Of a stretch of 64,000 bases of DNA, positions 22,712-23,326 are shown piece after piece. The position numbers and the translations under genes were made by a program. The DNA comes from a virus: positions 1 through 64,000 of IMG/VR virus record IMGVR_UViG_3300045988_085326, one strand, 5' to 3'. Under the pieces are notes generated by a model. It saw nothing but the letters and a program-made list of their open reading frames with translations, made no database searches and had not been told where the DNA came from. Positions within the stretch are counted from its first letter, which is position 1, and each line of letters opens with the position of its first letter.

Positions 22712-22846
22712 GATAAGGAGTAGGTTAAAACCTACTCCTTTATTTTTATTAAAATTTTTGTTATAATATATATAAGAAATGAGAGAAAAGGAAAGAAAAA
22801 TATGAAAATCTTAATTGTTGTAGATATGTAAAATGATTTCGTATCC

Positions 22847-23326
22847 ATGGCACTGGGTACGTCGGAAGCACAGACGATTGTGCCTGCTGTAGTAAAGAAA
22901 ATTGAAGAATGTAGGGCGGCAAACGATGTAGTAGTTTTCACCAAAGATACTCATTATGAAAATTATATGGAAACTCTTGAAGGAGAGAAGCTCCCTTTTC
23001 CTCATTGTATCGTTGCCACAGAGGGATGGCATATTATCCCTGAAATTGAGGTTAAAGCTAATGAAGAAGTTATTTCCAAGAATACATTCGGATATGATAA
23101 TTGGATAAGAGTTCTTGACAACTGGATTGATACCATTGACGAGATTGAGATTTGCGGCTTATGTACTGATATCTGTGTAATTTCAAATGCGCTTATTTTA
23201 AGAGCTTTATATCCAAATATGCATATTACGGTTGACGCTAAGTGCTGCGCGGGCGTCACTCCTGAGAAGCATCAAGCTGCGTTGGAAGTAATGAAGAGCT
23301 GCCAAATTGATGTAATTAACGAATAA
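22847..23326 (+). CDS. pncA: Nicotinamidase / isochorismatase-family hydrolase (PncA-like). The N-terminus (ATG at 22802, MKILIVVDM) is cut off by an in-frame TAA at 22829
   Basis: The motif VVDM-[TAA]-NDF equals the isochorismatase VIDMQNDF with the stop at the Q position. Catalytic Cys in ICGLCTDICV. Promoter at about 22745. Confidence 0.65.
   Translation: MALGTSEAQTIVPAVVKKIEECRAANDVVVFTKDTHYENYMETLEGEKLPFPHCIVATEGWHIIPEIEVKANEEVISKNTFGYDNWIRVLDNWIDTIDEIEICGLCTDICVISNALILRALYPNMHITVDAKCCAGVTPEKHQAALEVMKSCQIDVINE

Follow-up and report, generated by a model that had tools for sequence, protein, structure and literature searches.

In the nicotinamidase PncA of Mycobacterium tuberculosis, Asp8, Lys96 and Cys138 form the catalytic triad, and mutants of Asp8 lose both activity and stability (PMC3025910). 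Substitutions of Gln10 and of Asp8 in this protein are high-confidence loss-of-function alleles (PMC4212837), the recorded alleles including Asp8Gly/Ala/Glu/Asn and Gln10Pro/Arg/Lys as well as frameshifts that are scattered through the gene (PMC4212837; PMC3025910). In Borrelia, an annotation of PncA that was truncated at the N-terminus is incompatible with the fold and the activity of the enzyme (PMC13398362). Among bacteriophages, gene clusters for NAD synthesis of the kind considered here have already been described in gut phages (PMC11662467). The stop codons that are recoded in surveyed phages are TAG and TGA, and relatives that use the standard code favor TAA as terminator; a suppressor tRNA is frequent, not universal, among recoded phages, having been detected in 40% of TAG-recoded genomes (bioRxiv 10.1101/2021.08.26.457843).

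The locus described here lies within a window of 64,000 nucleotides (the whole stretch of DNA that was analyzed) from an AT-rich phage of the human gut (32% GC, about 140 kb), which has a large tRNA island and replication genes distantly similar to their counterparts in SPbeta-like phages and other phages of Firmicutes. The pncA gene (22802-23326, plus strand) heads a terminator-bounded operon, pncA-pncB-nadD-nadE, the content of which is the Preiss-Handler route together with the nicotinamidase step. The 5' boundary of the operon is an intrinsic terminator hairpin, an 11-bp stem followed by a T-run (TATTTTTATT; 22715-22740, plus strand), which closes the upstream VG64-like gene and is conserved in relatives. 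Between this hairpin and the gene lie an extended -10 element (TGTTATAAT; 22759-22767, plus strand), the putative promoter of the operon, which is invariant in five aligned genomes, and a purine-rich, probable ribosome-binding site (AAAGGAAAG; 22787-22795, plus strand), 6 nt 5' of ATG 22802, the position of which is kept in relatives. The -10 element was read by eye; it was not called by a consensus scanner and has no -35 match.

Downstream of pncA, and on the same strand, the three remaining genes of the operon are intact: pncB, encoding a nicotinate phosphoribosyltransferase (23338-24552; PF04095, E 1.6e-66, and PF17767; 97% identity to the close relative L081, no stops), a nadD-like gene for a nucleotidyltransferase of cytidylyltransferase-like fold (24545-25162; PF01467; 99% identity to L081) and nadE, encoding NAD synthase (25140-25883; PF02540, E 6e-53). 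An intrinsic terminator (25870-25895, plus strand) closes the four-gene operon. The clustering of pncB, nadD and nadE that marks a Preiss-Handler NAD salvage module on a phage genome is thus found here, and the same gene cluster is present in most of 80 phage loci from IMG/VR.

The pncA reading frame is interrupted at its tenth codon. ATG 22802-22804 is followed by the codons AAA ATC TTA ATT GTT GTA GAT ATG, such that the first nine codons (22802-22828, plus strand) encode MKILIVVDM, comprising strand beta1 and the catalytic Asp8 (GAT, 22823-22825). The next codon (22829-22831, plus strand), which is CAA or CAG in all relatives, is an in-frame TAA in place of the invariant Gln10. On the 3' side of this stop the same frame continues with AAT GAT TTC GTA TCC ATG GCA and stays open to TAA 23324-23326, so that the rest of the gene (22832-23326, plus strand; residues 11-174 and the stop) is otherwise undamaged and encodes D12, F13, D49, H51, H68, K93 and C125. 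The only entry for the locus in a mechanical list of open reading frames is a 159-aa ORF that starts at Met16 (22847-23326, plus strand), as called by gene callers. An earlier note on this DNA, made from the letters alone, had described a TAA at the conserved Gln of the VxDMQNDF motif, a promoter-proximal ATG at 22802 with a ribosome-binding site, and a catalytic Asp that lies upstream of the stop and is missing from the ORF restarting at Met 22847. Direct reading and alignment to M. tuberculosis PncA bear out the first of these points; the second agrees with the conservation in relatives of the purine-rich site and the extended -10 element 5' of the ATG, and the third with the position of the Asp8 codon.

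For profile and alignment tests, the 174-aa sequence with Gln restored at codon 10 was used. This restored protein matches Pfam PF00857 with an E value of 1.2e-31, residues 3-172 falling on profile positions 2-171 of 175, and its alignment to M. tuberculosis PncA (3PL1) starts at residue 1 (MKILIVVDMQNDF versus MRALIIVDVQNDF). Its residues D8, Q10, D49, H51, H68, K93 and C125 correspond to D8, Q10, D49, H51, H71, K96 and C138 of 3PL1, and the catalytic triad and metal ligands, including D8, as well as Q10, are invariant in 44 aligned homologues. The AlphaFold model of P0001, a protein 97% identical to the phage PncA, has a pLDDT of 94.7, with residues 2-7 forming strand beta1; its best matches in the PDB are the nicotinamidases of P. 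horikoshii, S. pneumoniae, B. subtilis and S. mutans, with TM-scores of 0.80-0.85. Judged by its sequence, the restored product is predicted to be a full-length nicotinamidase of the isochorismatase family (PncA, isochorismatase-like cysteine hydrolases). The alignment to M. tuberculosis PncA also places the stop exactly on the invariant Gln10, two codons past the catalytic Asp8. The locus therefore has the profile, the triad and metal ligands, and the fold of the PncA family, and lacks an uninterrupted frame that joins Asp8 with the catalytic Lys and Cys; because the TAA at 22829-22831 cuts Asp8 off from the remainder of the protein, it is to be classed as a pncA pseudogene rather than as a functional member of the family.

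Close relatives, found through a protein collection and one metagenome scan, define the ancestral state of the codon. In six of them, with 92-97% DNA identity overall, codon 10 is CAA (L081, L082, L087) or CAG (L084-L086), and TAA is confined to the window allele (one of seven aligned alleles). All nine residues encoded 5' of the stop are shared with these six closest relatives, three of which differ by one synonymous change at codon 3; this argues that the reading frame in front of the stop is no chance resemblance. With PncB as the query, a wider scan of IMG/VR found 80 loci, 62 of them with a detectable pncA, and the motif reads (V/I)D(M/V/A)QNDF, that is with Q, in 60 of 60 relatives whose alignment covers the site. 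Furthermore, in an 86-sequence protein cluster (at least 90% identity) the only 159-aa protein among the members listed is the window's own (P0121), the others having 174 aa. Since all relatives have Gln at codon 10, the ancestral codon encoded Gln and the C-to-T transition is private to the window genome. Of the three options that the earlier note left side by side (pseudogenization by a point change, a sequencing error, and readthrough or suppression of the stop), this supports the first, with CAA changed to TAA. Neither a megablast search of deposited phages with this region nor a scan of IMG/VR for the exact sequence pattern of the site found a match, and by the latter result this lineage is absent from IMG/VR.

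A real and recent single-base nonsense mutation, CAA to TAA at 22829, which has turned pncA into a recent pseudogene, is in our view the highly likely explanation of these observations. One alternative is an artefact of consensus calling or assembly, or else a minority variant, with a population that would be mostly CAA and a T that would stem from low coverage, a sequencing error or the allele of a sub-population. A single source genome is known to carry the TAA allele, as P0121 and P0135, a strain-specific protein of 494 aa, have a common source pattern of three contigs, the longest of 139,181 bp. The restriction of the allele to one genome or sample would suit an artefact, as would the fragmented state of the Logan assembly of run ERR414233 (contigs of 9.2 and 6.4 kb), a possible sign of modest coverage or of mixed strains; a literature search for this run gave no result. 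Two Logan contigs of this run, however, covering window positions 19708-28951 and 1006-7426, show 100% identity, stop included, and the presence of the same base in a separate assembly, made by a different assembler, shows that it is not an assembler quirk, although both agreeing assemblies probably derive from the same reads.

The substitution pattern around the stop bears on the same question. Over 7.6 kb, the window carries 128 private substitutions, of which nearly all are transitions, balanced in their proportions (C>T accounts for 27), and no excess of private substitutions clusters near the stop within these 7.6 kb; the TAA therefore fits the normal mutation spectrum of the lineage, and the changes look natural rather than erroneous. 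On the window branch the ratio of non-synonymous to synonymous changes is 3:5 in pncA versus 18:68 in its neighbors, a difference that is not significant. This lack of a significant signal of relaxed selection indicates that the stop, if real, is recent, and the pattern would also fit an error. Against an error, two further private changes of the loss type, a deletion of 8 bp and one of about 77 bp that fuses two tRNA genes, are both reproduced in the Logan contigs and are atypical of base-calling error, and the assembly is not generally error-prone, as about 60 other genes are without a lesion. Taken together, these observations make an artefact or minority variant unlikely.

The two deletions are of a common type, in that deletions between short repeats are typical spontaneous mutations and not base-calling errors. 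The first affects the VG64-like lipoprotein gene (PF25682; window 22327-22711) directly upstream of pncA, in which the private loss of 8 bp (TTGGATGT) between TTGG repeats causes a frameshift beyond codon 15, within the region of the signal peptide and lipobox (in relatives, MKKFFTIMLMVFMLGCLGGCS); the gene is intact, with 130 aa, in five relatives. The second lies in the tRNA island, where tRNA-Arg(ACG) and tRNA-Arg(UCU), 4-5 nt apart in relatives, are fused in the window (1745-1819) by the loss of about 77 bp lying between 12-nt repeats (TAGTTTAATGGA), which removes tRNA-Arg(ACG). The remaining, chimeric tRNA-Arg(UCU) has the 5' acceptor strand of the lost gene and, as a result, probably two mismatches at the base of the acceptor stem. 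Adjacent genes thus hold two of this genome's three private lesions, a proximity with a chance of roughly 3% for two random hits among about 65 genes.

Other irregularities of the tRNA island are seen in relatives. Upstream of the position that corresponds to the window's left edge, ARAGORN reports a 78-nt 'tRNA-???' in L089 (2910-2987), L093 (3421-3498) and L094 (1445-1522), with a loop of 8 nt at the anticodon, which is called as four bases, tatg in two of these relatives and tgtg in the other, so the anticodon region differs between close relatives. At the position of tRNA-Arg(ACG), L089 carries an insertion of about 800 bp (6820-7772) that encodes an HNH endonuclease and is followed by a different copy of tRNA-Arg(ACG), the 5' half of the old gene being left behind, which looks like homing-endonuclease traffic in the tRNA island.

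A different class of explanation accepts the TAA as real and has it decoded, so that a functional 174-aa enzyme is made by means of a suppressor tRNA, code reassignment, or programmed or near-cognate readthrough, for example by the phage tRNA-Gln(UUG). Three features would suit decoding: the stop replaces Gln, the residue that is inserted in the known phage recoding of TAG; the phage encodes both tRNA-Gln(UUG) and tRNA-Gln(CUG); and phAss-1, a distant relative, recodes TAG (PMC10607447). The signatures of a decoded stop are nevertheless missing. TAA terminates 42 of the 58 long ORFs of the window, and so it is not avoided as a terminator in the way that a recoded codon would be. Where recoded phages have many in-frame stops of one type, a single stop is present here, at pncA, and comparison with relatives found no in-frame stop in about 60 other genes (window 1-56 kb). 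As the earlier note had already remarked for ochre suppressors, no suppressor is found among the window's 11 tRNAs (0 of 11), and the anticodons TTA, CTA and TCA (UUA, CUA and UCA in the tRNA) are also absent from the relatives' complete islands of 22-25 tRNAs, which extend past the window's left edge.

Programmed readthrough, which goes with a stop and context that relatives conserve, and usually with a leaky codon (UGA or UAG) or a stimulatory structure, fares no better. The search for a stimulatory RNA structure near the stop gave no significant fold (z -1.46), a stop at this position is absent from all relatives, and the codon is UAA, the least leaky stop, which is read by both release factors. 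Surveyed recodings, moreover, concern TAG and TGA. The third option of the earlier note, readthrough or suppression, is accordingly left without a suppressor tRNA, a conserved stop, a stimulatory structure or a codon that is spared as a terminator, and decoding to a functional enzyme is, on this evidence, very highly improbable. These results also make the locus useful as a negative control for stop-recoding screens, as one isolated stop in frame at a conserved Gln does not constitute evidence of recoding.

The 159-aa ORF might alternatively represent a deliberate split, in which the downstream part is translated independently, from a start of its own, and has an altered function or one that is not enzymatic. 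An ATG (22847) lies in frame, 15 nt past the stop, which makes reinitiation physically plausible, and the ORF is reported by gene callers. On inspection of the sequence, however, no Shine-Dalgarno sequence is present upstream of ATG 22847, and Met16 is conserved only within the close cluster, distant relatives having IDGSLG or similar at this position. The same split in related phages, which the earlier note had named among its refuting observations, was looked for by comparing the relatives, and none has it. In addition, the product would be devoid of strand beta1 and of Asp8, and a truncation of this type is incompatible with the PncA fold (PMC13398362). A purposeful split is thus extremely improbable, and decoding and a split of any kind are, even when considered jointly, quite improbable.

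With the nonsense mutation as the preferred explanation, it is very probable that a single C-to-T change at the tenth codon kills the accessory enzyme PncA. Ribosomes that start at ATG 22802 would be expected to stop after nine residues, and some of them may restart at ATG 22847, 15 nt downstream and unaided by a Shine-Dalgarno sequence, to give a 159-aa protein. Without strand beta1, the general base Asp8, Gln10, Asp12 and Phe13, such a restart product would have no nicotinamidase activity. Since pncB, nadD and nadE are intact, the phage would be predicted to keep the route from nicotinate to NAD (PncB, NadD, NadE), and the step from nicotinamide to nicotinate would now depend on the host. 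For annotation, the 159-aa call, 'nicotinamidase-related amidase', should be labeled as a pseudogene, and the nicotinamide-to-nicotinate step should not be counted as encoded by this genome.

It is also conceivable, albeit highly improbable, that the ochre allele is a hypomorph through occasional decoding of UAA by tRNA-Gln(UUG) (window 1134-1208), or that the loss of PncA was itself selected. If the former were true, near-cognate decoding would reinsert the wild-type Gln and yield a trickle of active enzyme; in the latter case, the benefit might be, for example, that retained nicotinamide inhibits NAD-consuming defense enzymes of the host. The present analysis gave no positive evidence for either idea.

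The loss of pncA may have been tolerated because it is an accessory gene, which is absent or also damaged in many related phages. In 17 of the 80 IMG/VR loci no pncA is present within about 4 kb on each side of pncB, which shows, to a modest extent, that the NAD salvage modules of phages can dispense with pncA. The content of the module varies among these 17 loci: 15 of them (L002-L009, L011-L017) have pncB and nadE with no detectable pncA or nadD within about 4 kb, and L047 and L048 have pncB only (about 4 kb each side). Lesions are also seen in loci of related phages, namely a frameshift in pncA of L032 (at about 3027-3055), a TGA at a conserved Trp of pncB in L074 (position 4889) and a TAG at a Glu of nadD in L034 (position 5628). 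L074 and L034 were considered as recoded relatives and rejected, as ORF lengths hardly change when TGA or TAG is read as sense, and ORF-length tests gave no sign of an alternative code in L032, L074 or L034. Sporadic damage of auxiliary genes is therefore normal in assembled genomes of this group, and metagenome-assembled genomes of these phages have a background level of broken auxiliary genes of roughly 1-2%.

Several other features of the window were recorded in the course of the analysis. The ORFs at 33015-34925 and 34861-37254 were considered as a second split gene and rejected, being GyrB and GyrA; the GyrA of a relative, with its called start at window 34915, matches the window without interruption. 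At 10661-15118, a gene for a 517-aa Band-7/flotillin-like protein lies upstream of one for an 837-aa protein with major-vault-protein 'shoulder' and vault repeats, an unusual pair in a phage; the two genes are about 390 bp apart in the window and are separated by extra genes in some relatives. According to the annotation of relatives, a microbial PARG-like (ADP-ribose-processing) protein adjoins a metallophosphatase at 7453-8974, and a homologue of Thg1-like tRNA-His guanylyltransferase is encoded at 16687-17493, near an RNA ligase and the tRNA island. The PARG-like and Thg1-like genes may connect with the themes of NAD and of tRNA repair.

The mutation at codon 10 is an ordinary event of a known kind in a known kind of operon, and no new reading of the code is involved. 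A close parallel is pncA of M. tuberculosis in pyrazinamide resistance, where single-nucleotide changes in the N-terminal part of the active site likewise abolish an enzyme of the same fold and the same Asp8-Lys96-Cys138 triad. The alleles of M. tuberculosis, in contrast, are drug-selected and reside on a bacterial chromosome, whereas the phage allele is a nonsense codon in an accessory gene and is found in one metagenomic genome. The 159-aa call also resembles the entry for BBE22, the PncA of Borrelia burgdorferi, in being a database ORF that begins at an internal Met and is without the N-terminus it needs (PMC13398362). The true Borrelia PncA, however, starts upstream at a non-canonical AUU with no intervening stop, such that the full protein is made, whereas a genuine TAA separates the two parts of the phage gene.

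A stop at a conserved Gln in a large, AT-rich phage with a tRNA array also recalls the recoded gut phages (TAG to Gln, code 15; TGA to Trp, code 4), from which the present phage differs in having a single site, TAA as the codon concerned, no suppressor tRNA, a stop that is not common to its relatives, and TAA as the dominant terminator (bioRxiv 10.1101/2021.08.26.457843; PMC10607447). With the gut 'NAD-jumbo' phages it has in common the clustering of pncB, nadD and nadE (PMC11662467), here within a terminator-bounded operon; it differs from them in its genome of about 140 kb, as compared with more than 200 kb, and in a cluster that adds pncA, the gene that is broken here.
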